From an uncultured Chitinophagales bacterium (GTDB lineage: Bacteria > Bacteroidota > Bacteroidia > Chitinophagales > JABDMM01): a stretch of DNA of 51,068 nucleotides. Made by a program: the position numbers and the translations under genes. The stretch covers positions 1-51,068 of the forward strand of contig CAXDOZ010000003.1 of assembly GCA_963991145.1 (NCBI GenBank), given 5' to 3'. The stretch's first letter is position 1; each line of letters begins with the position of its first letter. Below, one piece after another: positions 12,843 through 49,052 of the stretch. Under the pieces are notes generated by a model. That model made no database searches, was not told where the DNA came from, and saw only the letters and a program-made list of their open reading frames with translations.

Positions 12843-14174
12843 ATGTTTGAGAATTTATCGGAAAAACTAGAATCGGCCTTTAAGACCCTTAAAGGCCAGG
12901 GCCAAATCACAGAAGTAAACGTTGCTTCAACGGTCAAAGAGATTCGGAGAGCCTTAGTAGACGCAGATGTAAATTATAAGATCGCCAAGGAGTTCACTGC
13001 AAATGTGAAAGAGAAAGCTCTTGGGGACAATGTTCTTACAGCTGTTTCACCTGGTCAGTTAATGGTAAAGGTGGTTCAGGATGAGCTAACCAGTTTAATG
13101 GGTGGTTCAGCTGCAGAATTCAACATCAAAGGTTCTCCGGCAGTAATCCTTATCGCAGGATTGCAGGGTTCGGGTAAAACAACCTTCACCCACAAACTTG
13201 CCCATTACCTTAAGACGAAGAAAGGAAAGCAGCCTTTGATGGTAGCAGGTGATGTTTATCGTCCGGCAGCGATAGATCAGCTTACAATTCTTGGAGAAGG
13301 AATTGACGTTCCGGTTTTCTCAGATAAAGAGAGTAAAGATCCAGTTGACATTGCAAAGAGAGCAATTGATCACGCAAAGGTCAATGGAAATAATGTAGTC
13401 ATCATTGATACGGCAGGGCGTCTTGCAGTGGACGAGGAGATGATGAAAGAGATCGAGCAGGTTAAGAAGGCTACCAATCCAAATGAGATCCTCTTCGTAG
13501 TGGACAGTATGACTGGTCAGGATGCCGTGAATACTGCGAAGGCATTCAATGACAGATTGGATTTCAACGGTGTGGTTCTTACCAAGCTCGATGGTGATAC
13601 AAGAGGTGGTGCTGCCCTATCGATCAAGTACACAGTTGATAAACCGATCAAGTTTGTAAGTACTGGAGAGAAGGTTGATACGCTTGATGTTTTCCATCCA
13701 GACAGGATGGCTAACAGGATTTTGGGAATGGGTGATATAGTATCATTCGTTGAGAAAGCCCAGGAGCAGTTTGACCAAAAGAAAGCTGCTGAACTTCAAA
13801 AGAAGATCTCCAAGAACAAGTTTGACTTCAACGATTTCCTATCCCAATTGGCTCAGATCAAGAAGATGGGTAACGTAAAAGATCTACTTGGGATGATCCC
13901 TGGAATGGGCAAAGCAATGAAGGACGTAGATATCGATAATGATTCCTTCAAAAAGATCGAAGCCATCATTCTATCAATGACCCCAAATGAGCGAGCTAAT
14001 CCTGAATTGCTGGATGGTAAGCGTAGAAAAAGAATTGCAGATGGAAGTGGAAATACCATTCAGGATGTAAACCAGTTTGTGAAGCAATTCGACCAAATGA
14101 AGAAAATGATGCGTCAGATGCAAGGCATGTCCAAAATGGGCAAACTCGGTCGTCGCATGCCGATGAAAAGATAA
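12843..14174 (+). CDS. ffh: Signal recognition particle protein Ffh
   Basis: [14 protein letters not shown] and [14 protein letters not shown] motifs; Met-rich M domain. Confidence 0.98.
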
Positions 14175-15358
14175 TGTCCGATACAAAGACCACAGATCAA
14201 TCGAGATATGCAGCAAGAGGAGTTTCTGCTGCTAAAGAAGATGTTCATGCAGCGGTAAAAGACCTGGAGAAAGGCCTTTACCCAAATACCTTTTGCAAGG
14301 TTTTCCCCGACTTGCTCGCCGGAGACGATTCTCAGTGTAATCTTATGAGTTCAGATGGCTCAGGAACCAAGTCAGCAATTGCTTACTTGTATTGGAAAGA
14401 GACTGGAGATGTAAGTGTTTGGGAAGGAATTTCAGAAGATGTGATCGTCATGAATCTGGATGATCTCCTGTGCACAGGCGCTACGAATAACTTCATCTTT
14501 ACTTCTGTAATCAATCGAAATAAGCACCTTATCCCGGGAGAAGTGATCTCAGCTCTTATCAGAGGCTCTGCTAACTTCTTTGATAGAATGAATGATCTGG
14601 GCATTTCCATCAAGTATGTTGGAGGTGAGACAGCAGATCTTGGAGATCTTGTACGTACAATTACTGTAGACGGCTCCATGACAGTTAGAATGCCACGTAC
14701 AAATGTGGTTAAGAACGAGATTCGTCCTGGCCAGGTGATCGTTGGACTAGCAAGCAATGGCAAGGCTAGCTATGAATCTGAATACAATTCAGGAATTGGC
14801 TCAAATGGGCTCACTTCTGCCCGCCACGATGTTCTTTCAAAGCATTACGCTACTCATTATCCTGAAAGCTTTGATCCAAACACAGATCAGCAATTCGTCT
14901 ACAGCGGGAAGCACCGTTTGACAGATCCTCTTGAAGGAACACCCCTAAACATTGGAAAAGCACTTCTTTCCCCAACAAGAAGCTTTGCTCCGGTTGTAAA
15001 GAATGTTCTCGATGAGCTTCCAGGGAAAATTCAGGGAATGGTTCATTGCACTGGCGGTGCACAAACCAAGGTTCTTCACTTCATGGACAGGTACCATGTG
15101 ATCAAGGATAATCTCTTCGCTACTCCTGCCCTATTCGAATTGATTCAAACTGATACTCAGACAGATTGGAGCGAGATGTATAAAGTCTTTAACATGGGAA
15201 ACAGACTTGAATTCTATGTGGATGAGGAATATGCACAAACCATCATTGACATTGCAAAAGGATTCAATATTGAATCTCAGATAATCGGAAGGGTTGAAGA
15301 CTCTGAAAAAGCAAAGGTCTCAGTAGTAACTGAGCACGGCACCTTCGAATACGAATAG
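14174..15358 (+). CDS. purM: Phosphoribosylformylglycinamidine cyclo-ligase (AIR synthase, Bacteroidota type)
   Basis: RYAARGVSAAKEDVH, DGSGTK, MNLDDL, GGETAD, SNGLTSARH, HCTGG, VFNMG; TAATG overlap with the ffh stop. Confidence 0.88.
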   Translation: MSDTKTTDQSRYAARGVSAAKEDVHAAVKDLEKGLYPNTFCKVFPDLLAGDDSQCNLMSSDGSGTKSAIAYLYWKETGDVSVWEGISEDVIVMNLDDLLCTGATNNFIFTSVINRNKHLIPGEVISALIRGSANFFDRMNDLGISIKYVGGETADLGDLVRTITVDGSMTVRMPRTNVVKNEIRPGQVIVGLASNGKASYESEYNSGIGSNGLTSARHDVLSKHYATHYPESFDPNTDQQFVYSGKHRLTDPLEGTPLNIGKALLSPTRSFAPVVKNVLDELPGKIQGMVHCTGGAQTKVLHFMDRYHVIKDNLFATPALFELIQTDTQTDWSEMYKVFNMGNRLEFYVDEEYAQTIIDIAKGFNIESQIIGRVEDSEKAKVSVVTEHGTFEYE

Positions 15359-15362
15359 CATT

Positions 15363-15391
15363 GCAACCTATTCGAAACTACTTCAGTCTAT
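15363..15391 (+). promoter_or_regulatory. Putative ECF-sigma promoter GCAACC-N17-GTCTAT
   Basis: The same bipartite motif occurs at 33711 and 44092; the AAC / TCT arrangement is ECF-like. Confidence 0.5.
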
Positions 15392-15395
15392 AAAA

Positions 15396-15476
15396 GCATT
15401 AAGGGATTAAGGGGTTTATCACCTCCTGTTTGATACGGATTTATTTAAAAGGCTCCTCTGCCAGGGGGGCTTTTTT
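15396..15476 (+). ncRNA. Candidate ~80-nt small RNA in the purM 3' region
   Basis: Lies between an ECF-like promoter and an intrinsic terminator with no credible ORF. G-rich 5' segment ATTAAGGGATTAAGGGGTTTA; internal hairpin TATCA/TGATA. The 5' end is approximate. Confidence 0.45.
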
Positions 15477-15815
15477 CATTTTATTCACTTTCTCTTTGCC
15501 TGATACGAAAAGGCTTATCCCTAAACCTATTACACCATACACGTACTTCATAGCGGCTTCCTTTACTCCTGAGATCAAGCGATCCCAGAAACTCAATTCA
15601 CTGTATTCATAATAGTCAGGGAGGTAAAATGGATCGGGTTGTACAGGTAGTTTTAAAGGGATCTGCTCAAACTCATACCAACAAAAGATCAAAGCTGCGA
15701 TCAATGGTAAGGAGATGCTCAATATCCAAACCAGGCGCATTCTAAAAATGGGAATAACCTTTACAATTAGCTTCCCGAGAACTAAGCCTGCCAATAACCA
15801 TAGGAACTGATTCAT
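15441..15815 (-). CDS. Small membrane protein of unknown function
   Basis: Three hydrophobic segments; start overlaps the stop of the upstream hydrolase gene. Confidence 0.65.
   Translation of the reverse strand: MNQFLWLLAGLVLGKLIVKVIPIFRMRLVWILSISLPLIAALIFCWYEFEQIPLKLPVQPDPFYLPDYYEYSELSFWDRLISGVKEAAMKYVYGVIGLGISLFVSGKEKVNKMKKAPLAEEPFK
15447..15476 (+). terminator. Intrinsic terminator for ffh-purM and/or the candidate sRNA
   Basis: AAAAG-GCTCCTCT-GCC-AGGGGGGC-TTTTTT; the G.U pairs form only on the plus strand. Confidence 0.75.
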
Positions 15816-16471
15816 TAGTCTGTGAGGGCTTTATCCAGAAGTTCTTTGATCTTCTTTCTCTGAAACATAACTACAAGATGTGATCCTCCTGAAACAGGAA
15901 TGGCGTTTTTGATGCGCCTAATTGGGAACAGTAGATCTCTTGTCCCATGAATATGAGAATACGATCCTGCCTCTCCCTTAAAGTTCCATTTCACAACCCG
16001 ATTAGTCACCCATGAGATGAAATGTGGCTTAGTTTTCTGAGCCATATCAATCATAATAGTAAATCGGTCCTTGGCTTTTGATAGGTTTCGGAGTCTCTTA
16101 AACCTCCATACATGAATATCTATAAGCCATTGTCCGGGTATAAGCTTGTGTAATGGCAGGTACCTTCCCAGCCTAATAAACCATGGCTTTTCAGACGAAT
16201 TCTTTATGGTAGATATATAGACCACTTTCTCTGGAGAACATCGCTGAGACAGCTCCGAACAGATTATCCCGCCAAAGGAAATCCCTACTAAAGAGAAGTC
16301 CTGATCCTGGTCGATTCTATTGAGGTACAATTGTATGTATTCCTCCCAATCGGTTTCATTGTTGGCATCAATCAGCTCTATGACCTCTGAATCATAGCCC
16401 TCAACGGGCAGATATGGATCGTAGATCCTCTTATCGCTACCTAAACCGGGTATTAAATACAGCTTCTTCAT
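15815..16471 (-). CDS. Alpha/beta hydrolase
   Basis: LIPGLGSD, GISFGG nucleophile elbow, HIHGTRDLLFP, GGSH. Confidence 0.85.
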   Translation of the reverse strand: MKKLYLIPGLGSDKRIYDPYLPVEGYDSEVIELIDANNETDWEEYIQLYLNRIDQDQDFSLVGISFGGIICSELSQRCSPEKVVYISTIKNSSEKPWFIRLGRYLPLHKLIPGQWLIDIHVWRFKRLRNLSKAKDRFTIMIDMAQKTKPHFISWVTNRVVKWNFKGEAGSYSHIHGTRDLLFPIRRIKNAIPVSGGSHLVVMFQRKKIKELLDKALTD

Positions 16472-17112
16472 TGGGGTTTATAAAAGCCAAGTTCAATATT
16501 TAAGGAATCCTGAACTGCCAACCAAAACTGATCGATAAACTGCTCTTTCAGGTAGATCCGCCTGGCCTTATCAGTATTCAGAGTAGTAGGAATATCCATA
16601 TTGGCTGTATCATAAAAGGCCAGCGTACCCATACATAGCCAATCGCTTCCACTCCAAACCCCATACCTTCCCGATACTACTCCCGGGAAAAAGCCATCTT
16701 CCATTAAAAATGGTAGAAGTTTCCCCTCTTCACCGAAGTCAAAAAGAAGAATCTGGTCATTATCAGCTTCAACATTAGAATTCATCCAACTCCAGTCTTG
16801 CCAATAGGCTTCCAGGCCTTCAGCATCGGCACCCTTTGCAATATAATTGATCAAGGTAAGGTCAATTGAGCCCTTCGGGCTGATATCGCCTGAGCAGAAA
16901 TTGTCTGCAGTAGGAATAGAATCCGGAAGGGAAACAAACTGTCTGAAAAATTCGATCTCAACACCCTCTTCCATTTCTACAGATGGCAGAACAGCGGTCT
17001 CTTGCTCCGAATTAGATTGGCAGTAGATCAGGAAAAAACAAACAAATAAGAAACTAAGCTTCGCGCTCGTAGAGAGCTTTGGAAAGACCGAGGAGTGGTT
17101 TCTTTTTAACAT
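16468..17112 (-). CDS. Hypothetical protein, possible lipoprotein
   Basis: In-operon ORF with a hydrophobic stretch ending FFLIYC; start uncertain (ATG 17112 or TTG 17118) and overlapping the upstream gene. Confidence 0.55.
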   Translation of the reverse strand: MLKRNHSSVFPKLSTSAKLSFLFVCFFLIYCQSNSEQETAVLPSVEMEEGVEIEFFRQFVSLPDSIPTADNFCSGDISPKGSIDLTLINYIAKGADAEGLEAYWQDWSWMNSNVEADNDQILLFDFGEEGKLLPFLMEDGFFPGVVSGRYGVWSGSDWLCMGTLAFYDTANMDIPTTLNTDKARRIYLKEQFIDQFWLAVQDSLNIELGFYKPQ

Positions 17113-18025
17113 CGTCAACTGGAAGCTCTTTCAATAAGCTTGAAGCATTAAGATAATAGCTTTCCATTTCCTCTTCGATAAAGCTTTTTGCACCTGTGCT
17201 CTCAATGATTTCAAGTATTTCGTCTACTTTTTCCTGAGAGTCAGTTTCTTGAGAGAACCAAAAGCTAATTCGATCTCTCTGCTCTTGATTAGCGAGTTCC
17301 CAGGCTTTGATTATCAGGCCTGTTTTCTTATTTCTAAGAATATCACCACCTACTTTCTTACCGATCTTTTCACCATTTCCAAAGGCATCCAGCCAATCAT
17401 CCTTTAACTGAAAACTAACGCCTAATAGCTCTCCAAATCGATACATGGTTTCCTGAGAATCAGGTGAAGCATCGCCTGAACTGGCTCCGATCTGCAAGCT
17501 AACTCCAAGAAGTACAGCCGTTTTAAGACGGATCATTTCAAGGTATTCAGGGTAATTTACGATTGCCTCTTCCTCGAAATCCATATCCATTTGCTGTCCC
17601 TCACAAATTTGCCTTGCAGCAACATTGAAGGTTCCAATGATCTTCGGATCCATCTCAGATTGAAGAATGTATTGATATGAAAGGACCATTGTTAGGTCTC
17701 CGGAAAGGATCCCGGCATTGAGTCCATAAGTTTTATGCACAGTTGGCTTGCCTCTGCGCTGATCCGCATGATCCATTATATCGTCATGGATCAGGGTGTA
17801 ATTATGAAATAGCTCAATTCCGTAAGCTGCAGGAAGAGCTTTTTCTAACACTCCATCAAAGAGATCACAAGCCATAAGAACGAATACTGGTCGGATCCGC
17901 TTTCCACCAATGGACATCATGTATTCAACTGGTTGGTAGAGGCCTGCGGGCTCGGCGGGGAAGAACTGCTGTTCTGAGTATTGATCAAAGATTCTTCTTA
18001 GATACGCATAATCCCCTGCGGTCAT
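17054..18025 (-). CDS. Polyprenyl diphosphate synthase (IspA/GGPP synthase family)
   Basis: GGKRIRP, LIHDDIMD..RRG, GQQMDM, KTA, FQLKDD, GKKVGGD; start 18025 preferred over 18094. Confidence 0.92.
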   Translation of the reverse strand: MTAGDYAYLRRIFDQYSEQQFFPAEPAGLYQPVEYMMSIGGKRIRPVFVLMACDLFDGVLEKALPAAYGIELFHNYTLIHDDIMDHADQRRGKPTVHKTYGLNAGILSGDLTMVLSYQYILQSEMDPKIIGTFNVAARQICEGQQMDMDFEEEAIVNYPEYLEMIRLKTAVLLGVSLQIGASSGDASPDSQETMYRFGELLGVSFQLKDDWLDAFGNGEKIGKKVGGDILRNKKTGLIIKAWELANQEQRDRISFWFSQETDSQEKVDEILEIIESTGAKSFIEEEMESYYLNASSLLKELPVDDVKKKPLLGLSKALYEREA

Positions 18026-33710: not shown

Positions 33711-33740
33711 GCAACCAAATTGTCATTTTACTCTATCTAT
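33711..33740 (+). promoter_or_regulatory. Putative ECF-sigma promoter GCAACC-N18-ATCTAT
   Basis: Intergenic, oriented toward the T9SS cargo-porP-porE operon. Confidence 0.4.
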
Positions 33741-33926
33741 ACTATCGTATAAGGTCATTACCTGAAATCTGTCTTGTCGAATGTGGTGATTTGGTGGAAA
33801 ACTGTTAGTTAAAACTCAATTCACCTGCTTTTAGACCTTCAGATGATTGTAATACCTCTTTTAAAATCATTATTTTAGTTCGTTCGAGAACAATTGAAAA
33901 CCCTTTTCTAACATATAACCAATTCT

Positions 33927-36900
33927 ATGAGGAGAATATTTACGCTCGCATTACTCTTCACCGGCATATTAACCTTCCTGACTACCAAGCAACTAAAGGC
34001 TTCGCACATTGCAGGTATGGATTTAACGTATCAATGTTTGGGTACAAACAACCCGAATGGGCCGGATACCATGTTATTCTTCCTGAATATCTATCGTGAC
34101 TGTAGCGGTATTACAGTTTCACAATTTCAGAATCTGGTTATTTCATCCCCTACTTGTGGAATCCAGCAGACATTACAGCTGAATTTTGACTCAGTAACTG
34201 AAGTAACTCCTATTTGTAATACAGGTGTTATAAGTACTTGTAATGGGGGTAATGTTCCTGGGGTTCAGCAGTATGCCTTCAGTTTGCAGGTTGTGCTACC
34301 ACGTTGTCCGGATTGGACGATAAGTTGGAGCACTTGTTGTCGTAACCCGGCAATCACCAACCTTCAAAACCCTGGTGGTCAAGGATCATATATTCAAACA
34401 ACTTTAAACAACCAGGCTTTCCCTTGTAATAGCTCACCGAGATTTACAACTCTTCCTGTACCATATATATGTATTAATACTCCGATTAACTACAACCACG
34501 GTACTATTGACTTGGATGGTGATTCACTTGTTTATTGCCCAATTGACCCTCAAAGTGCAGCAAACACTAACATTCCTCACGTTCCTCCATTCTCTGCATC
34601 TCAGCCTTTGACTGGTACTTATTCTGTGGATTCTACGAATGGTCAGATTTTTATTAATGCTACAGCCCTTCAGGTAATCACAATTGCGATCCTTGTTAAA
34701 GAATACCGAAATGGAGTGCTTGTCGGTACTGTTAGACGTGATATTCAGTTTAGGGTAATTGCCAATATTAATGGGGTACCGTGTAACACTGCCATCCCAC
34801 CTATTACCCTGGACACTGTGATTGGTGCCGTGCAGGTTGATTCGGTCACAGTAGAAGCCTGTCCGGGAACACCTATGTCTTTAGTGGTAAGTGCCAATAG
34901 CTTATTTGGTGATACCCTTACAATGACATCCAATGCTACTATCGCATTCCCAGGTTCATCCTTTAATACTGTTGGAACCGATTCGGTAACGGGTACATTC
35001 AACTGGGTTCCTACAAATGCAAATGTGGGACGTAATACCTTGCTGATATTTGTAAAATTCTGTTCTCCATCTGGTCTTGAATTCCAGCAGATCTATCCTA
35101 TTACAATTATTGTTTTAGAAGGAACAGACGCTGGGCCCGACATAATTTATTGTGCCGGAGGTGGTCCCAGGACAATTAATGTAGCCGGCGGTACTCAGTT
35201 TAGTTGGAGTCCTACTACTGGAATTATTTCAGCTTCACCGGATTCATCCACTGTTCAGGTTCTCCCACCAATACCTGTAGGAGATTCAATTACTTACATT
35301 GTAACAAGTGATCTCGATACAAACTTCTGTCGATACAGAGATACAGTTACAGTATATCACAGGTTAGACTTCACATGGACAGTTGGTGCGCAACCAGATA
35401 CAATTTGTGCTTTTGGGTCTACAGTTCTGTTTGCACTTCCAGATGCGAACTTTGGTCCATATGTATACGCTTGGGCTCCAAATTCAGCTCTTACGGATGA
35501 TAGTATCCCGAATCCTGGAGCAAGACCGCTTCAAACTACTGATTATCAGATAACAATGACATCTAACACAGGATGTACCACAAAAGATACTGTTCGAGTA
35601 AACGTTGATGGGATTGCACCTAAGATCAATTTGACTTCAGATAAGAATGATGTTTGCCCAGGGGATACCGTTCAGATATTTACCCAGGTAAGTGCTGTTC
35701 CTTGTGGGTTGAGCACGCAATTCCTTCCTGGCTGTAGCTTTGTTTCTGGAGTAATTGGAAATCAACCTACAAATACAAACATCGTCACCCCTTACCGCGG
35801 CCAGTTCAGATACCATAGAATGCAGATCATCTACAGAGCTTCTGAGCTCCAGGCTGCTGGTATGACTTCTGGAAGTATTTTCGCATTGACCTTTGACGTA
35901 CTTGCTGCACCTGGTGGTGTTAATAGTACTCAGTACAATGACTTCACCATCAGAATGGGTTGTACTGAATTAACTGAACTTTCAGGTTTTGAAGGAGGTT
36001 TGACAACGGTTCTACCTGCATCTACCTACACTGTAGTTCCAGGTCAAAACACACATAACTTACCAACTTCATTTGATTGGGACGGAAGATCAAACCTTAT
36101 TGTAGAGGTATGTTATTCAGCTGCATCTAACTCAGGATCTGATTTTGTAAACTATACACCTGCATTTAATGGAGCTGTTGCTTACCAGAGTACAGGTTTT
36201 GGATCTACTCCAGGTTGTTTGCTGAACACTTTTGTAACTCTTTCTGATCTCAGACCAAATACTACGTTTGTTACTTGTAATGCAGCAACAACAAACCTTA
36301 CTTATACCTGGACTCCTACTGTTAATCTTGATGATCCTGCTATTGCTGAGCCATCTGCATTAGTTAATCAGGATATCACTTATCAACTTGTTGTAGATGA
36401 TGGTAACTGTACAGGTGATACTACTATCGAACTAAGAGTTGATAGCTCATACTATGTTTCTACAAACCCAGACACTGGAGTTTGTGCAGGTGATACAGTT
36501 CAGCTTTACACTAACTTAATTGGAGACCTTCCTCCTGCAGTTCTTGCTTGTGGTTCTAATCCGAATGGTTGTGGCTCATTTAACTTCCAAATTGGAGATG
36601 TAGGTACTGCAACAACTACAGTGACAGTTCCTAACCCATTCTATGCAACATGGGAGGATCAAAGAGTTCAATACTTATATCTGGCTTCGGAATTACAAGC
36701 TCTTGGTTTTGGCCCAGGTAGTATAACGGATATCGCCCTTGATGTGGCTACCATTTCTGGTACTGATGCCGGAGACTTTGAAGTTAAGATCGGATGTACA
36801 AATGCCAACCAATTAACCGCTTGGCAAACAGGACTTACCAGTGTTTACACCGTAAGTAACTGGATACCGATTGTTGGTTTCAACACATTCAACTTCAACC

Positions 36901-38927
36901 AGGTCTATGACTGGGATGGAGTATCAAATGTTGTTGTTGAATTCTGCTACAACAAGCCTGATTGGGGTGGAACAGCAAGTATTAGATATACAACAGGTCC
37001 ACTAAATTCTGTGTACTATGAGTACCAGGATGGAGCTACTCAAATCTGTAACATTCCTAACCCGGTTAACGGAAACCGTCAGGATAATCGAAGAGCAAAC
37101 ACAAGATTCATTATTTGTGATGCTCCACCTGCAACAGTTAGCTATGAGTGGTTCCCTAAGGTTGCAATTGATAGTCCATTCTCTGCAAACCCTCAGGTTT
37201 ACCCAAGCACAGGCACACAATATATTGTTGCAGCCTCTTTCGTAAACGGATGTACTCGATACGATACTGTAAATGTTAACATTGGAGGTTTCAACTATAC
37301 ATTAGCAGCAAATCCAGATACTATTTGTGTTGGTGATACATCAATTCTAACTATTACTGGAGGTGACTTCTATCACTGGACACCACTAGCAAGCGTTACA
37401 GATCCAACATCAGCTACCACCGGAGCCTTCCCTACTTCTACTACTACTTATTCTGTAATAGCTACAGACTCTGCAGGTTGTAGAATCCAGGATACTATTG
37501 CAGTAGCTGTTGATCAACAGTTCTCTCCTAGTATTGGAAATGATACTACTGTTTGTCCAAGTGCAGCGGTAACTCTTGATGCTGGTCCAGGATATGCTTC
37601 CTATTTCTGGAACGCTCCTGGTAACCCAACTACTCAAATAATTACGGTTACAGACCCAGGTCAATACAGTGTTATTGTCAATAATGGAATTTGTGATTAC
37701 TTATCAAACACAGTTACTGTATCAAACTTTGGAATTGCTCAACTACCGCTTAATGATGAGATCCTTTGTGATGGTCAAACAACTACTTTGACTGCACCAG
37801 CAGGATATAGCAGTTACTTATGGTCAACTGGAGCTACAACTCAAAGCATCATCGTTTCAAGTAACCCAACTAACCCTTACTACTATCAGGTAGTTGATCA
37901 GAACTCTTGTAATGCCTTCTCAGATACAATCATCGTATCAGTGGGTCAAACTCCTGTTCTGGTTCTTGGAAACGATACCACGATTTGTAACGGCGCCTCA
38001 GTTACAGTAACAGCGGGTCCTTCTACAGGTATCAACTACGTATGGTCTGATGGTCAAACTGGGCCAACAGCTACATTCAGCACAAGTGGAATCTTCACTG
38101 TTCTTGCTGACAATAATGGATGCGAGGCTAGAGATTCTATTCAGGTTGGTATTAGTAATGGTCCAGCTATCAATATCGGTCCAGACGAGATCAACATCTG
38201 TTGCGATCAAAGTGTAGTTCTTTCACCAGGTCCTGCTGCTTCTTACTCATGGCAAGATGGTTCTAGAGCTTCAACAATCATAGTTAACAAGAACTCAGGT
38301 AGTGGAATGTATACTGTTGCTGCTACAGATGCTCTTGGTTGTGTATCAAACGATACGACTTACATCACAATCAACTGTTTAGATCCAATTGCTACTTACA
38401 CTCCTGAGCCATTACCACAGGGTGATACAGCTCAATTAGCAGTAAGTAGTGCCGCTACTCAGCCTGTTTATAGTTGGACTCCTACTACGGGATTAAATGA
38501 TCCAACTAATGCAAGACCATTAGCTGCAATTGATTCTACTACAACATATGTTGTTGGAGTTACCGACCAAGGATTCATTAATTCAAATGGAGATTACTGT
38601 ACTGAGTATGATACAATCACTGTAATTGTAATTCCTCCTACAGGATACAATTCTGCGAATGCATTCACCCCGAATGGTGATGGGTTGAATGATGATTTCT
38701 ACCCACTACTTAGTGGAGAAACAACTGTACAGTCATTCAAGATTTATGATCGCTGGGGTCAACTACTCCACAATGATCCAAACAATCCATGGGATGGAAC
38801 CACAGGAGGACAAGCTCAGCCATCTGGCACTTATGTCTTCTATATGGAATTATTGGTAAATGATCCAACACAGATTGATGTTAAGATCGTTCAGCCAAGT
38901 ACTGGAACCGTTGAACTAATTAGATAA
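33927..38927 (+). CDS. Large T9SS cargo with type B (gliding motility-associated) C-terminal domain
   Basis: Signal peptide then ASHIAGMDLTYQCLG..YRDC; many CxGxxVxL..YxW Ig-like repeats; C-terminal NAFTPNGDGLNDDF..IYDRWG..WDG..GTYVF..LIR. Confidence 0.93.
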   Translation: MRRIFTLALLFTGILTFLTTKQLKASHIAGMDLTYQCLGTNNPNGPDTMLFFLNIYRDCSGITVSQFQNLVISSPTCGIQQTLQLNFDSVTEVTPICNTGVISTCNGGNVPGVQQYAFSLQVVLPRCPDWTISWSTCCRNPAITNLQNPGGQGSYIQTTLNNQAFPCNSSPRFTTLPVPYICINTPINYNHGTIDLDGDSLVYCPIDPQSAANTNIPHVPPFSASQPLTGTYSVDSTNGQIFINATALQVITIAILVKEYRNGVLVGTVRRDIQFRVIANINGVPCNTAIPPITLDTVIGAVQVDSVTVEACPGTPMSLVVSANSLFGDTLTMTSNATIAFPGSSFNTVGTDSVTGTFNWVPTNANVGRNTLLIFVKFCSPSGLEFQQIYPITIIVLEGTDAGPDIIYCAGGGPRTINVAGGTQFSWSPTTGIISASPDSSTVQVLPPIPVGDSITYIVTSDLDTNFCRYRDTVTVYHRLDFTWTVGAQPDTICAFGSTVLFALPDANFGPYVYAWAPNSALTDDSIPNPGARPLQTTDYQITMTSNTGCTTKDTVRVNVDGIAPKINLTSDKNDVCPGDTVQIFTQVSAVPCGLSTQFLPGCSFVSGVIGNQPTNTNIVTPYRGQFRYHRMQIIYRASELQAAGMTSGSIFALTFDVLAAPGGVNSTQYNDFTIRMGCTELTELSGFEGGLTTVLPASTYTVVPGQNTHNLPTSFDWDGRSNLIVEVCYSAASNSGSDFVNYTPAFNGAVAYQSTGFGSTPGCLLNTFVTLSDLRPNTTFVTCNAATTNLTYTWTPTVNLDDPAIAEPSALVNQDITYQLVVDDGNCTGDTTIELRVDSSYYVSTNPDTGVCAGDTVQLYTNLIGDLPPAVLACGSNPNGCGSFNFQIGDVGTATTTVTVPNPFYATWEDQRVQYLYLASELQALGFGPGSITDIALDVATISGTDAGDFEVKIGCTNANQLTAWQTGLTSVYTVSNWIPIVGFNTFNFNQVYDWDGVSNVVVEFCYNKPDWGGTASIRYTTGPLNSVYYEYQDGATQICNIPNPVNGNRQDNRRANTRFIICDAPPATVSYEWFPKVAIDSPFSANPQVYPSTGTQYIVAASFVNGCTRYDTVNVNIGGFNYTLAANPDTICVGDTSILTITGGDFYHWTPLASVTDPTSATTGAFPTSTTTYSVIATDSAGCRIQDTIAVAVDQQFSPSIGNDTTVCPSAAVTLDAGPGYASYFWNAPGNPTTQIITVTDPGQYSVIVNNGICDYLSNTVTVSNFGIAQLPLNDEILCDGQTTTLTAPAGYSSYLWSTGATTQSIIVSSNPTNPYYYQVVDQNSCNAFSDTIIVSVGQTPVLVLGNDTTICNGASVTVTAGPSTGINYVWSDGQTGPTATFSTSGIFTVLADNNGCEARDSIQVGISNGPAINIGPDEINICCDQSVVLSPGPAASYSWQDGSRASTIIVNKNSGSGMYTVAATDALGCVSNDTTYITINCLDPIATYTPEPLPQGDTAQLAVSSAATQPVYSWTPTTGLNDPTNARPLAAIDSTTTYVVGVTDQGFINSNGDYCTEYDTITVIVIPPTGYNSANAFTPNGDGLNDDFYPLLSGETTVQSFKIYDRWGQLLHNDPNNPWDGTTGGQAQPSGTYVFYMELLVNDPTQIDVKIVQPSTGTVELIR

Positions 38928-38946
38928 ACCTAAACCCCTATATAAA

Positions 38947-40029
38947 ATGCGCTTTTTATCACGTTGCTCATTAATTGCAGTTTTGCTGATCGTAGCATCA
39001 AGCATATCTGCTATCGGACAGGATTTACACTTTAGTCAGTATTACGCCTCTCCTCTTACATTAAACCCGGCTTTAACAGGTCGCTTTGATGGAGAGTATA
39101 GGGTAACTGCAATCTATCGTAACCAGTGGAGTCAGGTTAACAGACCTCTTTGGAGTACTCCATCTGCATCAGTAGACTTCTCTCTTTTTAAGGAAAAGTT
39201 GAAAAAGGATGCCTTCGGACTTGGATTAGTCTTTGTCAATGACCAGGCTAATAGTGCTCGATTCAATACCTATAAAATAGCAGCCAACTTCGCTTACCAC
39301 AAGGGTTTTGGTAAAAACGGTAAGACACAGGCTTCACTGGGTATTGGTGTTTCTTGGACTCAGAAAAACTTCGATTTCAACGACCTGAGATTTGAAGATG
39401 GCTTTGATCCATTTGACATCACCTCTTATGGCACTAGCGCTGAGCAATTAGCTGGAGATAACAATTCATACATTGATGTTAATGCTGGATTGCTTATTAA
39501 TAGCCAGATCACTGAATCAACTGTTATCTATGGGGGTTATTCTCTATTCCATTTAACTACACCAAACGAAGTGTTCTTAACACTGCAAGGTGGTGGGACA
39601 ACTACAGACAACAACATTCCAATGCGTCATGTGATTCATATGGGTGCAGAGATTGACCTATCTGATAAGTTTACTCTTATCCCTGGATTGTTAGGTCAAT
39701 TCATGGCTAAATCAAAAGAGATCAATTTTGGATTAACTGCAGGATACCATTTCCTTGAAAAGTCTGATAATGAAAATGCTACTCCAAAAAGAGTTGCGAG
39801 TATTTATGGAGGACTATGGCATAGATGGGGTCGCTCTGTTATCCTAAAAGCGGGTCTAGATTGGAAGAGTTTCCGTCTTGGAGTAGCTTATGATGTGAAC
39901 GTAAGTAGCTTAAAAGACATCAAAAACACTGGAGCAAATCATCCAACTGCATTTGAAATTTCACTTGCTTACATTGGACGAATTACTCCTCCAAAAGATC
40001 GAGTATATCTGTTTAACCCAAGATTCTAG
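38947..40029 (+). CDS. PorP/SprF family T9SS outer-membrane beta-barrel
   Basis: QDLHFSQYYASPLTLNPALTG, YRNQW, AYDVN, AFEISL; directly follows the type-B cargo gene. Confidence 0.93.
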   Translation: MRFLSRCSLIAVLLIVASSISAIGQDLHFSQYYASPLTLNPALTGRFDGEYRVTAIYRNQWSQVNRPLWSTPSASVDFSLFKEKLKKDAFGLGLVFVNDQANSARFNTYKIAANFAYHKGFGKNGKTQASLGIGVSWTQKNFDFNDLRFEDGFDPFDITSYGTSAEQLAGDNNSYIDVNAGLLINSQITESTVIYGGYSLFHLTTPNEVFLTLQGGGTTTDNNIPMRHVIHMGAEIDLSDKFTLIPGLLGQFMAKSKEINFGLTAGYHFLEKSDNENATPKRVASIYGGLWHRWGRSVILKAGLDWKSFRLGVAYDVNVSSLKDIKNTGANHPTAFEISLAYIGRITPPKDRVYLFNPRF

Positions 40030-40082
40030 ATATACCCGAAGTACCCAAACCCTTACCCTTAAACAACCTTAAATAACTCAGT

Positions 40083-42164
40083 ATGAAATACATAGTACTC
40101 CTATTACTTCCCCTGTTGATAGGTATGAGTACAGAGGTGGAGGCTCAAGCCACCTATGAAGCCAATAAAGACCTTAAAGTCAGGAAGAAGAAAAAAATGG
40201 CTAACCGCCTGCGTAAAAATGGCAGTTATTACAATGCGGTTAACTATTATGAAGATGTTCATGTTGCTAAACCTGAGAAAAGTAGAATCATCTACTACTT
40301 AGGGGAGCTTAACTATGAATTAAGAGATTACGAAGAAGCAGCCAAATACTTTACTCAACTAATGGAATTAGATGAGAATGGTAAAGGATATCCTATGGCT
40401 CCACTTCATTATGCAAAATCTCTTAAAGCCCTTGAAAAGTATAAGGAAGCAATCATTATCCTCGAAAGCTTTAAAGAGACTTATAACGATAAGAAGACAA
40501 GGGAGAAATTTCATGCTTTAGCTGACAAAGAGATCGAAGGTTGTAAATACGCTCTTCAACAAATGGAAGAGGGAAGCTTGGGTGAAGTAACTCCAATGGC
40601 AGCAGGATTTAATGAGGCTCTGCAAGACTATGCACCTCTTCCAACAGAAGAAGGTATGTTGTATTCACGCCTCTATTCAGATACTGCAATCGCTCTCAAT
40701 TCTATTAGAGGAGGAAACGTAGGTCCTAACAATGCTACTGGCTACTACAGCCGTATACTTTCAGTTAAGGGATCAGGAGATTCATGGGAAAAACCTGAAC
40801 CGCTTTCTAAAGGCGTAAATGCCGAGGATGCTCACGTGGGTAACCCTGCTATTTCTCTTGATGGAAATACCATCTATTACACTCAGTGTTACGAGACTAA
40901 AACCCTTACGATGGAGTGTAACCTTTACTCTGCAAAGAAATCAGGGGATTCCTGGGGTGAAGGTGAAGAAATGGAAGAACTGAATGCCAAGAAAGCTACT
41001 ACAACTCACCCTGCCGTAGGGGTTGATGTAAATGGAAATGAGGTTCTATACTTCTCTTCTAACCGTGAAGGTGGAATTGGTGGTATGGATATCTGGTATG
41101 CAGTTAAAAACTCAAAAGGAAACTTCTCTGAGCCTAAAAATCTAGGTAAAGTCATCAATACTGTTGGTGATGAGGTAACTCCTTTCTACGATGAACTATT
41201 TGAAGTTCTTTACTTCAGCTCTGATGGACATAAGAACATTGGAATGCTGGATGTATTTAAGATTGAAGGAAATGTTGGAGAATGGGATACAGTTGCAAAC
41301 CTTGGAATGCCTGTTAACTCTCCTGTTGATGATATCTATCTAAAACTTGGAGATAATGGTGAGGACGGATACATGGTTTCTAACCGTATTGGTACTACTT
41401 CTCCTCGAGGTAAGACTTGCTGCGACGATATCTGGAATGTTTCTGTTCTTAAGCCTAGAAATCTTGTTCTTAAAGGATACTTCGCTGAAAAAGGAGATCC
41501 ACAGAAAAAACCTCTTGCAGGCGTAGATGCATCACTATACGAAGTAGATGGGAACAACTTCCTATTCGTAGATAATGTGACTACAAATGCTGAAGACATG
41601 TTCTTATTCGATCTTACTCCAGGAGTAGATTATAAGATGAATGGTTCCAAAGAAGGCTACTGGCCGAGCGTAGATAACATTGAAACTCCGGATGAGATCC
41701 TTAGAAACGATACTATCTTCCAGATCTTCTACATAGAGAAGATCGTACGTCCGGTTATTCCTGTTAAAAGAGTATACTTCGCTTTCGACAAGTCTGATGT
41801 TAGAGAGATCTACAAAGACAGACTTGATTCACTTACACTTGCTCTTCAGGACAATGAAGAATTCTTCCTAAGAATCGAAGGTCACACAGATAGCAAGGGT
41901 ACAGAATCATATAACCAAAAGCTTTCTGAAAGAAGAGCTGAAGCTGCAAAAGGCTATTTGGTTGAAGAGAAAGGAATTGACGAAGGTCGAATTGAAACTG
42001 AAGGTAGAGGCGAGAATGAGCCTATCGCTGAGAACGCTTTCCCTGATGGAAGAGATAATCCTGTTGGTAGAGCTAAAAACCGTCGTGTAGAATTTGAATT
42101 GATCTCAGATGATGAGTCAATTGAAATCGAATACATCGATGACGATCCAACTGTAATCGAATAA
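40083..42164 (+). CDS. PorE-like TPR-PD40-carboxypeptidase regulatory-like-OmpA protein
   Basis: TPR region; YFSSNREGGIGGMDIW and YFSSDGH PD40 repeats; YFAFDKS, GHTDSKG..YNQKLSERRA and NRRVEF OmpA motifs. Confidence 0.88.
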   Translation: MKYIVLLLLPLLIGMSTEVEAQATYEANKDLKVRKKKKMANRLRKNGSYYNAVNYYEDVHVAKPEKSRIIYYLGELNYELRDYEEAAKYFTQLMELDENGKGYPMAPLHYAKSLKALEKYKEAIIILESFKETYNDKKTREKFHALADKEIEGCKYALQQMEEGSLGEVTPMAAGFNEALQDYAPLPTEEGMLYSRLYSDTAIALNSIRGGNVGPNNATGYYSRILSVKGSGDSWEKPEPLSKGVNAEDAHVGNPAISLDGNTIYYTQCYETKTLTMECNLYSAKKSGDSWGEGEEMEELNAKKATTTHPAVGVDVNGNEVLYFSSNREGGIGGMDIWYAVKNSKGNFSEPKNLGKVINTVGDEVTPFYDELFEVLYFSSDGHKNIGMLDVFKIEGNVGEWDTVANLGMPVNSPVDDIYLKLGDNGEDGYMVSNRIGTTSPRGKTCCDDIWNVSVLKPRNLVLKGYFAEKGDPQKKPLAGVDASLYEVDGNNFLFVDNVTTNAEDMFLFDLTPGVDYKMNGSKEGYWPSVDNIETPDEILRNDTIFQIFYIEKIVRPVIPVKRVYFAFDKSDVREIYKDRLDSLTLALQDNEEFFLRIEGHTDSKGTESYNQKLSERRAEAAKGYLVEEKGIDEGRIETEGRGENEPIAENAFPDGRDNPVGRAKNRRVEFELISDDESIEIEYIDDDPTVIE

Positions 42165-44091: not shown

Positions 44092-44121
44092 GCAACCTGA
44101 GCTTTACTCCGCCTTGTCTAT
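44092..44121 (+). promoter_or_regulatory. Putative ECF-sigma promoter GCAACC-N18-GTCTAT
   Basis: In a 60-nt gap, ending 21 nt before the ATG of the type-A T9SS cargo. Confidence 0.5.
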
Positions 44122-44142: not shown

Positions 44143-46203
44143 ATGAGGATTTTTCTACTCCTGACAGTTCTATTCACTCAATTCTTAATTGGGAATTCAA
44201 GAACACTCTATGTTGATCCTGTAAATGGTAACAGCGCATATGATGGTAGTTCGCCCACTTTTCTGGGTGGAAATATAGGCCCCAAGCAAACACCACAACA
44301 AGCTATCAACCTCTTTCAGGCAGGCGATACTATAAGGCTTGCCAATGGAACTTATAATAATGGCTCCCCTTCTATCATTGATATCAAAAATCAGGATGGA
44401 TTGGTCATAATTGGGGAAAACCGCGATAGCGTTATTATCGACGGCACCAATAAGCAATTTGCTGTTTCCATAAGCACATCAACAACAAATCCAAATGTAG
44501 ATGTACAATTACACAACTTAACCGTCATCAACACCAATGGAGGCACCTCACCGGCTCATATTCTCATCTGGGAGGCAGAAAGAATTAGCCTCGGCAACAT
44601 CACAATTGAGGGTCCTGGTCAATTCAATGCACCGGGAGATATGTCTACTGGAATCAAGATCATGGAAACTGACAGCGTTTCTTTGCGCAATGTTACAGTT
44701 CGATCATGCGAAGGAAATGGAATTGAAGTTGGAGGCGGATCCAGTAACCTAATGCTTCACAATATTGAAGTATTCGCTTCATCATCTGATCTTGGAACTG
44801 GAGGGATTCTGTTAAGGACACCAAGTGCAGGAATCTTCCCTTCAGGAGACATCAGCATTCCTACATGGACAGGAAATCTTGAGCTTGATTCATGCTATAT
44901 AGGGATTTATTTTGATACTCAAAGCGGTACTATTTCTCTAGACTTCTCAGGAAACTCTGTAATTGAAGACAACTTCCTATTAGATGCAGCTCTTTTTGGC
45001 TCATCTACTATACCTATCCAGGAACTGAAAGAGTTGGGCTTTAATTTCATTGGTACTCTAGGGATTTTGCCAGGGGTCGAAACTTACTTTGCAGCAAGAG
45101 ATGATCTATTAGCACTTACAACAAACCCAACTTATGTAGCTTCCTCTATCGCCTCTGATATAGACAGAACCATTTGGTTTGTGGAAGGTGCCATGAAGAC
45201 AAACCTGCCGGTTAACAATGCGAGCTCTGGAGATACCATCGCTTTTATTGGAGAGGATTTTAGCACTGTAGAATTTCTCTCAAACAATGAACTCTACATC
45301 ATGGCTGAGGATGGACTTGTAAGATTTAAATCCTTCAATGTGAATGGAACCCCAGCCTTTGCCAAATTGATCAACAACTTTGAGGTCATTGAGGAATTGA
45401 TCTTAACCAAGGGAAATATTGAAACAGACAATTTCAATCGCCTTACGCTCGAACCAGGTTGTCTGATCATCGGAGGAAGTGACATTAGCCATGTTGATGG
45501 ACCTTTGAATTTCAAACTTGCATCCTCAGGCAACAGTGTTCTTAGCTTTCCACTTGGGAACTCAGGAAAATATAGAAGAGTAGATCTGAATATTGATCAA
45601 AGCAATTCAGATACTTCAGTTTACTCAATGGACATGTTGAATGGAGCTCCGGCTGCTAATCAGTTGCCAGCAAGCCTGGATAGGCTTTTAAGTGACCACC
45701 ATTGGACTTTTAGTGTTAATGGAAACAATTTCAACAATGCAATTCCAACTTTAGCCTACAACAACCCTGACGGAGTTAATGACACAAGCAGTTTAAGAGT
45801 AGCATTTTCAGATGATCAAACGAATCTAAATGACCTTGGGGGAAGCGGAAATCAGGTTGTTACAGGATCTATAACAGCAACCTCTTTTTCAGGACCTGGA
45901 GAGCTTGTTCTAGCAAACTCTTCTGGTGGGGGTAATTTTACTGGAATTGACAGACCTCAGGATAGAACCGATATTCTTCTATATCCAAATCCAGCCAGAA
46001 ACACAGTTTTCATTCAAATTGACAAACCCGAACTGTTTAGTTCGATGGTGATCATTGACATGCTCGGTAGAGCAGTTCTAGAAAAGCCTATTCCTGATTC
46101 CGGAATGGCTGAGATTACTGTTGATAACCTGCCAAATGGTTATTATCAGTTGCTTTTCACAGGATCAGAGGCGGCAATTAAGAATTTAATCATTGCCAGG
46201 TAG
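44143..46203 (+). CDS. T9SS type A cargo with N-terminal right-handed beta-helix
   Basis: TLYVDPVNG..QQAI..GDTIRLANGTY; parallel beta-helix repeats; C-terminal LYPNPA..IIDMLGR..LPNGYY. Confidence 0.88.
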   Translation: MRIFLLLTVLFTQFLIGNSRTLYVDPVNGNSAYDGSSPTFLGGNIGPKQTPQQAINLFQAGDTIRLANGTYNNGSPSIIDIKNQDGLVIIGENRDSVIIDGTNKQFAVSISTSTTNPNVDVQLHNLTVINTNGGTSPAHILIWEAERISLGNITIEGPGQFNAPGDMSTGIKIMETDSVSLRNVTVRSCEGNGIEVGGGSSNLMLHNIEVFASSSDLGTGGILLRTPSAGIFPSGDISIPTWTGNLELDSCYIGIYFDTQSGTISLDFSGNSVIEDNFLLDAALFGSSTIPIQELKELGFNFIGTLGILPGVETYFAARDDLLALTTNPTYVASSIASDIDRTIWFVEGAMKTNLPVNNASSGDTIAFIGEDFSTVEFLSNNELYIMAEDGLVRFKSFNVNGTPAFAKLINNFEVIEELILTKGNIETDNFNRLTLEPGCLIIGGSDISHVDGPLNFKLASSGNSVLSFPLGNSGKYRRVDLNIDQSNSDTSVYSMDMLNGAPAANQLPASLDRLLSDHHWTFSVNGNNFNNAIPTLAYNNPDGVNDTSSLRVAFSDDQTNLNDLGGSGNQVVTGSITATSFSGPGELVLANSSGGGNFTGIDRPQDRTDILLYPNPARNTVFIQIDKPELFSSMVIIDMLGRAVLEKPIPDSGMAEITVDNLPNGYYQLLFTGSEAAIKNLIIAR

Positions 46204-48473: not shown

Positions 48474-48893
48474 TTAACGGCAATTAGGGCAGGTACCCTG
48501 AACAAGGATATCCATCTCATTCACTCTGTAACCCTCCGGGAAAGTTAAACCAGGAACAGTAACCTCTTCAAGGCAGGTCGTTTGTTTACATGAGTTACAC
48601 TTGAAATGAACGTGGTTGTGATGGTGCTCTTCTGACTCACATTCATCCGGACAAAGAGCAAACTTTGAAACTCCACTATCATCAAGGATCTTATGCAAGA
48701 TTCCCTTATCCAGAAATGTGTTGAGAGTTCGATATAGGGTAACACGATCGTAATCCTGACTCAGATTAGTCTCAAGATCACTGTGGTTTAAAGCAAACTC
48801 ATTACCAAGAAAAACATCAAGAACGTCAGATCTACATTCTGTTCTCCTAAGGTTATGTTGCTTTAAGATATCCCATGCTACTCTCGTTTCCAT
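48474..48893 (-). CDS. Fur-family transcriptional regulator
   Basis: DRVTLYRTL, HHHNHVHFKCNSC, CPNC; start 48893 preferred over 48926. Confidence 0.9.
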   Translation of the reverse strand: METRVAWDILKQHNLRRTECRSDVLDVFLGNEFALNHSDLETNLSQDYDRVTLYRTLNTFLDKGILHKILDDSGVSKFALCPDECESEEHHHNHVHFKCNSCKQTTCLEEVTVPGLTFPEGYRVNEMDILVQGTCPNCR

Positions 48894-49052
48894 TCTGCAA
48901 ATTTTTAGAAAATAACGCTGCTTCAAAAATCTGAAATGCCATTATTTCTCAGATACAAAGAAAAAACGGTCAGTAATCTAAACAGTTCATTTTCTAAAAA
49001 GAGAGCTCATAAGCCCCCAAGGTTGCCTAAGAAGCCATAGATTGTATGCCCT

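Follow-up and report, generated by a model that had tools for sequence, protein, structure and literature searches.

What is a promoter doing where there is no gene for it to drive? In the window analysed here, which is the whole of a 51,068-nt contig (CAXDOZ010000003.1, C3 below) from an uncultured Chitinophagales bacterium (genome G000; 2.75 Mb in 256 contigs, 89% complete, 42.6% G+C), two promoter-like hexamers lie immediately behind the stop codon of purM, and the next gene is convergent. We propose that this region, positions 15363-15481, probably encodes a new small RNA (sRNA) of the type tied to extracytoplasmic function (ECF) sigma factors. To the full reading, in which it is a small non-coding RNA gene in the purM 3′ untranslated region (UTR) that is transcribed from an ECF-type promoter, belongs to a type IX secretion system (T9SS)-linked regulon and acts by base-pairing, we assign a probability of about 0.6. 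Its core, an orphan ECF-type promoter followed by a terminator-ended small RNA, is well supported by evidence from beyond this one locus.

An orphan promoter and a putative small RNA behind purM

The elements of the locus, referred to as copy 1, are listed below.

14174..15358 (+): purM, the upstream context (Pfam AIRS and AIRS_C, TIGR00878), with its stop codon at 15356-15358
15363..15368 (+): GCAACC, −35-like hexamer, 4 nt past the purM stop codon
15386..15391 (+): GTCTAT, −10-like hexamer, a 17-nt spacer away from the −35-like hexamer
15397..15481 (+): predicted sRNA copy 1, about 80-85 nt, deduced from the anatomy; 49.1 bits with sequence model R1, described below
15398..15418 (+): ATTAAGGGATTAAGGGGTTTA, G-rich 5′ region (the putative seed), mostly unpaired
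15411..15425 (+): weak 5-pair hairpin partly covering the second G run, with 3 pairs only in the centroid fold
15447..15475 (+): intrinsic terminator, a 13-pair stem-loop followed by a T run
15441..15815 (−): convergent open reading frame (ORF) of 124 aa, membrane-like, no Pfam match; context

An initial annotation made from the letters alone had described the purM stop codon, both hexamers with their 17-nt spacing, the G-rich stretch, the hairpin, the plus-strand terminator and the convergent gene, and all of them are present as it described. Transcription from GCAACC-N17-GTCTAT would start near 15397, a position that we infer from a distance of about 6-8 nt past the −10 hexamer, and the end is placed within the T run. 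Ending at the sole terminator behind purM (15447-15475 and its T run), the transcript would measure about 80 nt and have a G-rich 5′ part that is largely unpaired. In the fold of the predicted RNA the terminator alone is stable and the G-rich part is largely unpaired; the minus strand gives no terminator stem. The last ~12 codons of the convergent ORF overlap the terminator, so that the intergenic spacer is just 82 nt and a single terminator is available to purM, which shares it with the predicted sRNA. Copy 1 is hence laid out as a 3′ UTR-embedded sRNA is, on the same strand as its upstream gene, behind it and using its terminator.

A 60-aa ORF with a TTG start (15430-15612) was considered as a gene and rejected, as it extends across the terminator and has no counterpart in copy 2. 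At 15419-15428 copy 1 contains TCACCTCCTG, which forms weak pairs with the seed's second G run and is absent from copy 2; we take it to resemble the 3′ end of 16S rRNA, in the anti-Shine-Dalgarno region. On the minus strand, a tight operon convergent with purM (15441-17118) comprises three overlapping ORFs: one of 216 aa whose N-terminus is signal-like, one of 218 aa that matches alpha/beta-hydrolases weakly, and the 124-aa membrane-like ORF listed above.

A second copy on contig C5

A paralogous unit, copy 2, is found at C5:39487-39585 (locus L119:1488-1585). It consists of GCAACC-N17-GTCTTT, nine bases, the string ATTAAGG-TTGTTTTT-GGGGTTTAT and a terminator formed by an 8-pair GC-rich hairpin and a run of seven T, and its fold has a z-score of −2.17. 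Copy 2 lies between two minus-strand genes of unknown function, so its terminator is needed by no other plus-strand transcript; unlike the 3′ UTR-embedded copy 1, it is a free-standing intergenic unit.

The pattern ATTAAGG-N0-20-GGGTTTA has three matches in the genome, two of which are copies 1 and 2. A sequence model of the promoter-to-seed part built from the two copies (R1) likewise finds two places only in a whole-genome search, namely the two copies (E = 1.6e-15 and 1.3e-12, the latter for copy 1). Between them the hexamers and two blocks of the G-rich region, (C)ATTAAGG and GGGGTTTAT, are kept, and the promoter spacer and the terminator differ. The kept blocks are mostly unpaired in the fold. 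This pattern fits selection on functional elements better than recent duplication, and it is the strongest single argument that 15363-15481 is a gene.

The promoter motif recurs upstream of T9SS genes

The motif GCAACC-N16-18-GTCTA has exactly two matches in the genome, both intergenic and both in the window. When one mismatch is allowed, 16 matches are found, and half of them (8/16) are intergenic, against an intergenic fraction of 15.7% as derived from a crude gene model (binomial p = 0.0014). Twenty control motifs with shuffled hexamers gave more matches (mean 25.4) and fewer intergenic ones (mean 3.25, maximum 6). The −35-like hexamer is exactly GCAACC in seven of the eight intergenic sites. 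Beyond copy 1, the intergenic sites, together with one weaker copy, are:

44092..44121 (+): GCAACC-N18-GTCTAT, both hexamers identical to those of copy 1; stops 21 nt short of the ATG of a type-A T9SS cargo gene (44143-46203)
33711..33740 (+): GCAACC-N18-ATCTAT, one mismatch; 186 nt before the type-B cargo/porP/porE operon (33927-42164)
C24:9778-9805: 67 nt before a type-A cargo gene encoding an M43 protease
C91:1373-1401: 29 nt before porQ (NF033711, E = 9e-99)
C10:13401-13430: 34 nt before a DUF6495 gene
C29:12171-12200: before an ORF of unknown function
C5:39487: orphan, the promoter of copy 2
48998..49026 (−): weaker copy, GCAACC-N17-CTCTTT, 18.4 bits; 104 nt before ORF 48474-48893

In a weight-matrix scan trained on the eight sites, what follows them is noise in coding regions, with two weaker intergenic candidates added; the site at 48998-49026 is the top-scoring intergenic site outside the training set. 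Leaders were defined as positions −60 to +20 of predicted genes (2,135 leaders from 2,199 ORFs), and a T9SS set had been fixed beforehand from Pfam matches to type-A and type-B C-terminal domains (CTD-A, CTD-B) and PorP (115/2,135 leaders). Three of the six gene-linked motif sites fall in this set (p = 0.0028), and porQ is a fourth T9SS gene, which makes 4/6. The organism has a large T9SS cargo load for a 2.75-Mb genome, with 80 type-A CTD matches over the Pfam cut-off, 27 type-B CTD matches and 18 PorP/SprF genes.

An AAC in the −35 element is a usual hallmark of ECF promoters. Another is a CGT box in the −10 element, as quoted in a study of Flavobacterium psychrophilum (PMC9723704). The motif described here has AAC in −35, GTC(T) in −10 and a spacer of 16-18 nt, a resemblance to ECF promoters at the level of sequence only. 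We regard GCAACC-N16-18-GTCT(A/T)T as a candidate alternative-sigma promoter, whose putative regulon would comprise porQ, two type-A cargo genes and the type-B cargo/porP/porE operon. ECF regulons are usually small, and this one looks small too. Since the promoter type that would drive these T9SS genes is also the one in front of copy 1 and of the C5 paralogue, the RNA is probably an arm of a T9SS-linked sigma-factor regulon.

In related genomes the motif lies 37-43 nt before type-A cargo genes (G113, G186) and, in genus g34, about 220 nt upstream of an ECF sigma gene. The best match to that sigma gene in our genome is C8:24230-24808 (45% identity, E = 4e-52), which makes it a candidate for the cognate sigma factor. 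This ECF sigma gene (locus L115:1429-2007, minus strand) has no adjacent anti-sigma gene, and recA lies downstream of it.

Comparable units occur in other Chitinophagales

Model R1 gave noise-level matches only in 100 relatives (best E = 0.006 per genome), one of which led to a unit in genome G027. There, an 11-pair terminator comes about 60 nt after GCAACC-N17-GTCTTT, and neither flanking gene is on the strand of the unit. A like unit in G002, of the same genus, has an identical 25-nt U/G-rich stretch and a different terminator, and G015 and G089 contain another variant of the succession of orphan promoter, G/U-rich stretch and terminator. Across the order, the motif with a T run 45-80 nt downstream is present in 50 of 301 genomes, roughly twice the rows of a reversed control by a hand count of table rows.

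A search of all species genomes for the motif followed by N8-30 and AAGGGTTA returned 74 matches, of which we inspected 26 (22 in Bacteroidota, four in other phyla). Eighteen of these are full units with a terminator, in records labelled Chitinophagales, Chitinophaga, Chitinophagaceae, Bacteroidetes or Sphingobacteriales. The eight without a terminator are the four from other phyla, the Maribacter, Flavobacterium and Cytophagia records and one Bacteroidota metagenome-assembled genome; the Flavobacterium match, the single one in that genus, looks like chance.

An alignment of 17 distinct sequences (A3; G002/G027 variants, G015/G089 variants and exact duplicates left out) shows a conserved unpaired UUUAG-UUUUUAAGGGUUAAAC block and a variable hairpin. 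Four of the five predicted pairs of its terminator have changes on both sides in at least one sequence, as expected of compensatory change. The model built from it (R2, for the Chitinophagales UUUAAGGGUUAA units) detects such units in 14 of the order's 151 genomes (E <= 0.001), nine of 11 in family f15 and the rest in f18, f21, f25 and f26; one member, in f25, has no recognisable motif upstream. A typical unit has a GCAACC-N16-18-GTCT(A/T)T promoter, is 60-75 nt long and combines an unpaired U/G-rich 5′ part containing AAGGG(U)UA with an intrinsic terminator. Most members adjoin a peroxiredoxin gene, from which the RNA unit is divergent, and lie upstream of a cargo gene.

Copies 1 and 2 share with these units the promoter GCAACC-N16-18-GTCT(A/T)T directly upstream, the layout and the G/U-rich 5′ part, and AAGGUUGUUUUUGGGGUUUA of copy 2 is visibly close to UAGGUUUGUUUUUAAAGGGUUA of genus g55. 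They differ in having other neighbours and no downstream gene. The recurrence of the motif, the C5 paralogue and the units in relatives together support what the initial annotation had read from copy 1 alone, a promoter that has no mRNA to drive and is followed by a short terminator-ended RNA.

Possible pairing of the G-rich region with mRNA leaders

In the mechanism that we infer, pairing would take place between the G-rich 5′ region and C-rich motifs (AACCCC, CCCTTAA), which are clustered 10-40 nt ahead of start codons, and would alter the translation or stability of a set of mRNAs. Two leader sites are listed here.

40047..40071 (+): porE leader, adjacent complements to both copies; copy 1 at −17.2 kcal/mol (rank 24), copy 2 at −21.8 kcal/mol (rank 5)
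16472..16483 (−): complement of the copy-2 seed, perfect over 12 nt and immediately preceding the ATG of ORF 15815-16471 (the weak alpha/beta-hydrolase match) and about 1 kb from copy 1

In the porE leader a perfect 12-nt match to copy 2 adjoins the copy-1 site, and this leader has the best joint rank of both copies among the 2,135. The porE-like gene at 40083 is accordingly placed as the best single candidate target. Perfect 12-nt complements of the copy-2 seed number two among all leaders, where 0.12 would be expected.

The initial annotation had proposed ranking the seed genome-wide against shuffled seeds. In that comparison the real copy-1 seed has a better minimum energy than 39/39 shuffles; its 29 leaders at or below −17 kcal/mol are a count that 3/39 shuffles reach.

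The word CCCTTAA is present 25 times in leaders (9.4 expected), 18 of these at −40 to −1, and its reverse complement has no such peak. In five g42 genomes (loci L273-L289), the conserved block has 12 non-self complements, of which 7 are located 2-19 nt ahead of an ATG, among them, by eye, those of a gldL-like and an ECF-sigma-like ORF. The 12 complements compare with 18 for a reversed control, so that there is no excess in number and the position alone is biased. CCCTTAA (TTAACCCTTWAA in relatives) clusters 10-40 nt before start codons, often just past a stretch rich in T. The word may have nothing to do with the sRNA and simply characterise leaders, or the 5′ ends of transcripts, throughout this lineage.

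The best single duplex of the copy-1 seed in the genome (−25.1 kcal/mol) is with the msrB leader (C10:13367-13562, locus L120), an intergenic region that also holds a divergent copy of the motif, the one driving the DUF6495 gene. The msrB neighbourhood here and the peroxiredoxin neighbourhood in relatives may hint at a link to oxidative stress.

Evidence against the sRNA and alternative explanations

Several results weigh against reading 15363-15481 as a base-pairing sRNA of a T9SS-linked ECF regulon. None of the nine ECF sigma genes examined in the genome, including C8:24230-24808, has the motif upstream, no autoregulated sigma gene was found in the genome, and the exact motif is no commoner in five relatives than a reversed-pattern control. 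The leaders used for target prediction come from crude gene models (first ATG, ORFs of at least 100 aa), and the genes with CCCTTAA in their leaders are functionally mixed (16 annotated, among them a methyltransferase, a class II aminoacyl-tRNA synthetase, ScpA, a TonB receptor and one cargo gene). In the one other genome of the same family that was compared, no unit was found. Tested against the two copies (70 kb), R2 scores copy 2 at 14.8 bits (E = 0.56) and copy 1 at 12.3 bits (E = 1.7, on the terminator only), and its nine whole-genome matches at E <= 10 are all generic terminators, with neither copy among them. The search for promoter, seed and terminator units in relatives, as suggested initially, thus yielded comparable units within Chitinophagales and no significant match of our copies to R2. 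We treat the copies as the same kind of unit and possibly diverged homologues; membership in the family is not demonstrable.

Target choice belongs to the same list. The seed had initially been described as tuned to T9SS leaders on account of four matches, before porP (38931-38939), porE (40047-40062), a cargo gene (33898-33905) and an adhesin gene (7335-7328, minus strand). All four exist. Among the 2,135 leaders their copy-1 duplexes rank 24 (porE), 288 (porP), 545 (cargo) and 659 (adhesin), which puts the last three at 13-31% of the list; the adhesin site lies at −62 to −69 and reaches −22.3 kcal/mol only when its leader is extended to −90. The 115 T9SS-linked leaders do not differ from the rest with copy 1 (medians −10.3 and −10.0 kcal/mol, Mann-Whitney p = 0.42, with five type-A matches below the Pfam cut-off left out and 10 matches unmapped to leaders), and four of them are in the copy-1 top 5% where 5.75 are expected. 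With copy 2 there is a slight shift (p = 0.0057), and 5/66 shuffled seeds do as well and 20/66 give p < 0.05; T9SS leaders are simply slightly G-poorer. Ranks for the leaders of the regulon's own genes run from 8% to 99%, and TAAACCCCT and related words are not over-represented genome-wide (17 found, 22 expected).

A shuffle test on the four named sites gave a summed energy of −64.7 kcal/mol against a shuffle mean of −42.0 (sd 5.8), reached by 0/1,000 shuffles; target by target, 217 shuffles of 1,000 are as good for the cargo gene, 103 for porP, 13 for porE and 0 for the adhesin gene. We rejected this test as support, since it is circular: the sites had been chosen for matching this very seed. 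Three of the four targets are unremarkable, no T9SS enrichment is seen, and the idea of a T9SS-tuned seed is not borne out. The link to T9SS rests on the shared promoter, that is on the regulon, and not on a preference of the seed.

The alternative that survives best, and which we hold unlikely, is that the region is the purM 3′ UTR and its terminator and nothing else, the hexamers and the G-rich stretch being chance or neutral. By our own estimate from base composition, about 0.9 exact matches to the motif are expected genome-wide, and purM has no other terminator. The copy-1 fold shows no extra stability relative to shuffles (z = −0.76). The region is present in five metatranscriptome runs, of which four were aligned to it, all as assembled contigs; these show neither transcript starts, ends, strand nor expression level, so that contig breaks (15382/15419 for X2, 15426/15471 for X1) are no evidence. 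RNA contig X1 is unbroken from the purM coding sequence to 15426, a finding accounted for just as well by a mere purM 3′ UTR, and another contig begins at 15471; of a second run, one contig stops at 15382 and X2 covers 15419-15826. The region thus occurs in RNA libraries, and this is in keeping with read-through from purM.

Similar DNA is absent downstream of purM in all 102 loci compared from relatives and metagenomes (amino-acid identity up to 62%), and a 221-nt query against 41 genomes found itself and one 26-nt chance match only. Close relatives of the lineage are lacking, so that conservation at this locus cannot be judged at the nucleotide level, and the comparison says nothing either way. 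A mere 3′ UTR is at odds with the C5 unit, where like hexamers, the two G-rich blocks and a plus-strand terminator of its own stand between minus-strand genes, with the enrichment of the motif in intergenic DNA and before T9SS genes, and with similar orphan units in other genera.

Quite unlikely is the view that the units are premature-termination leaders (attenuators) of ECF-driven genes, or remnants of such leaders, and so cis-acting or inactive rather than trans-acting sRNAs. It draws on the neighbours of the family in relatives. In the 18 family loci examined (one without a called downstream ORF, one without a called upstream ORF), a same-strand ORF follows 22-330 nt past the unit in 13 of the 16 that have a downstream ORF called; at locus L230 it encodes a type-A cargo adhesin, genus g55 has a gene for an EGF-like lipoprotein beginning about 22 nt past the terminator, and G027 and G057 have EGF-like lipoprotein genes with the promoter directly in front. 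Both copies described here and the G002, G027, G015 and G089 units, on the other hand, have no same-strand downstream gene, and conservation is highest in an unpaired stretch rather than in an alternative structure.

The repeats in these RNAs allow a further reading, which we consider very unlikely: a sponge or decoy that would titrate an RNA-binding protein through (U)UAAGGG / UUAGG motifs, without pairing to mRNAs. The motif is duplicated in tandem in copy 1, TTAGGTTTAG occurs twice in the G015 unit, and the predicted mRNA targets have no coherent function. No candidate binding protein was identified, and the exact block complements concentrate just before start codons in both data sets given above (g42 block, 7/12; CCCTTAA, 18/25). 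That the RNA is a guide for dCas12f-sigmaE RNA-guided transcription, with the matches near gene starts as DNA targets, is hardly credible: such systems exist in Bacteroidetes with guide matches of 13-14 bp upstream of genes, according to one report (PMC13472631), and the complements here are close to gene starts, but no Cas12f/TnpB domain (PF07282, PF01385) was found in the 89%-complete genome, for which reason this reading was set aside, neither copy has an rpoE-dcas12f neighbourhood, and the units have their own promoter hexamers, are 65-85 nt long and are conserved at the 5′ end.

Relation to known regulatory RNAs and significance

The enterobacterial sigmaE-dependent sRNAs MicA, RybB and MicL are short and terminator-ended, are transcribed from ECF-type promoters and form the repressing arm of the envelope regulon; they depend on Hfq and repress abundant outer-membrane protein mRNAs. 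MicL is transcribed from a promoter of its own within an upstream gene and uses that gene's terminator, and DapZ is a 3′ UTR-embedded sRNA with its own promoter. The position of copy 1 behind purM parallels that of MicL. The unit has no sequence relation to MicA, RybB or MicL as judged from Rfam, and no enriched class of targets is seen here. Rfam (release 15) has no match at gathering score in the window, with only E >= 2.2 in 15200-15650, and none in five loci with copy 2 and the relatives' units. The literature on ECF sRNAs of Bacteroidetes, on Chitinophagales sRNAs (for which no relevant paper was found) and on T9SS sRNAs yielded no such family. As far as these sources go, the initial statement that no described family matches holds.

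The closest precedent appears to be Rfp11 of F. psychrophilum, a resemblance at the level of the regulon and by description only. There the ECF-type motif SM6, with a CGT box in −10, precedes gldN, porU, a PG0189 homologue, an ECF/anti-sigma pair and the putative regulatory RNA Rfp11, which the authors describe as a structured RNA that is also conserved in further species, giving it no function (Guerin et al. 2021, PMC9723704). Like the predicted sRNA described here, Rfp11 is a non-coding RNA under an ECF-type motif that, in that account, also drives T9SS genes. Its host belongs to another order, Flavobacteriales, and the −10 element here is GTCT(A/T)T, with CGTCT in one of our eight sites, where the −10 of SM6 as published has the CGT box (PMC9723704).

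In Porphyromonas gingivalis, SigP/PorXY is described as a system in which an ECF sigma factor controls T9SS component genes (PMC4800418, PMC8265659). The regulon proposed here would likewise include T9SS component genes, as judged from a DNA motif. The accessible text on SigP/PorXY describes no sRNA arm, and no sigma-P promoter consensus was found in it (PMC8265659).

A wider proposal goes beyond the reading of 15363-15481 as an sRNA gene, and we consider it unlikely. [quoted passage not shown]

To our knowledge, little is known of post-transcriptional control in Bacteroidota outside Bacteroides and Flavobacterium. If the sRNA reading is true, copy 1 would be the first sigma-factor-dependent sRNA described in this lineage, with its sigma factor and its mode of action predicted from the DNA. 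The work would then define, for an uncultured lineage, the promoter motif of an alternative sigma regulon linked to T9SS, with two paralogous sRNAs inside that regulon, and it corrects the original claim by placing the T9SS connection in the promoter and not in seed complementarity. The family of at least 17 sequences in related genera, some of whose genomes are 100% complete by marker genes, would make function and comparative targets approachable. The design known from enterobacterial sigmaE, a sigma factor with an sRNA arm, would thereby be extended to the regulation of T9SS.

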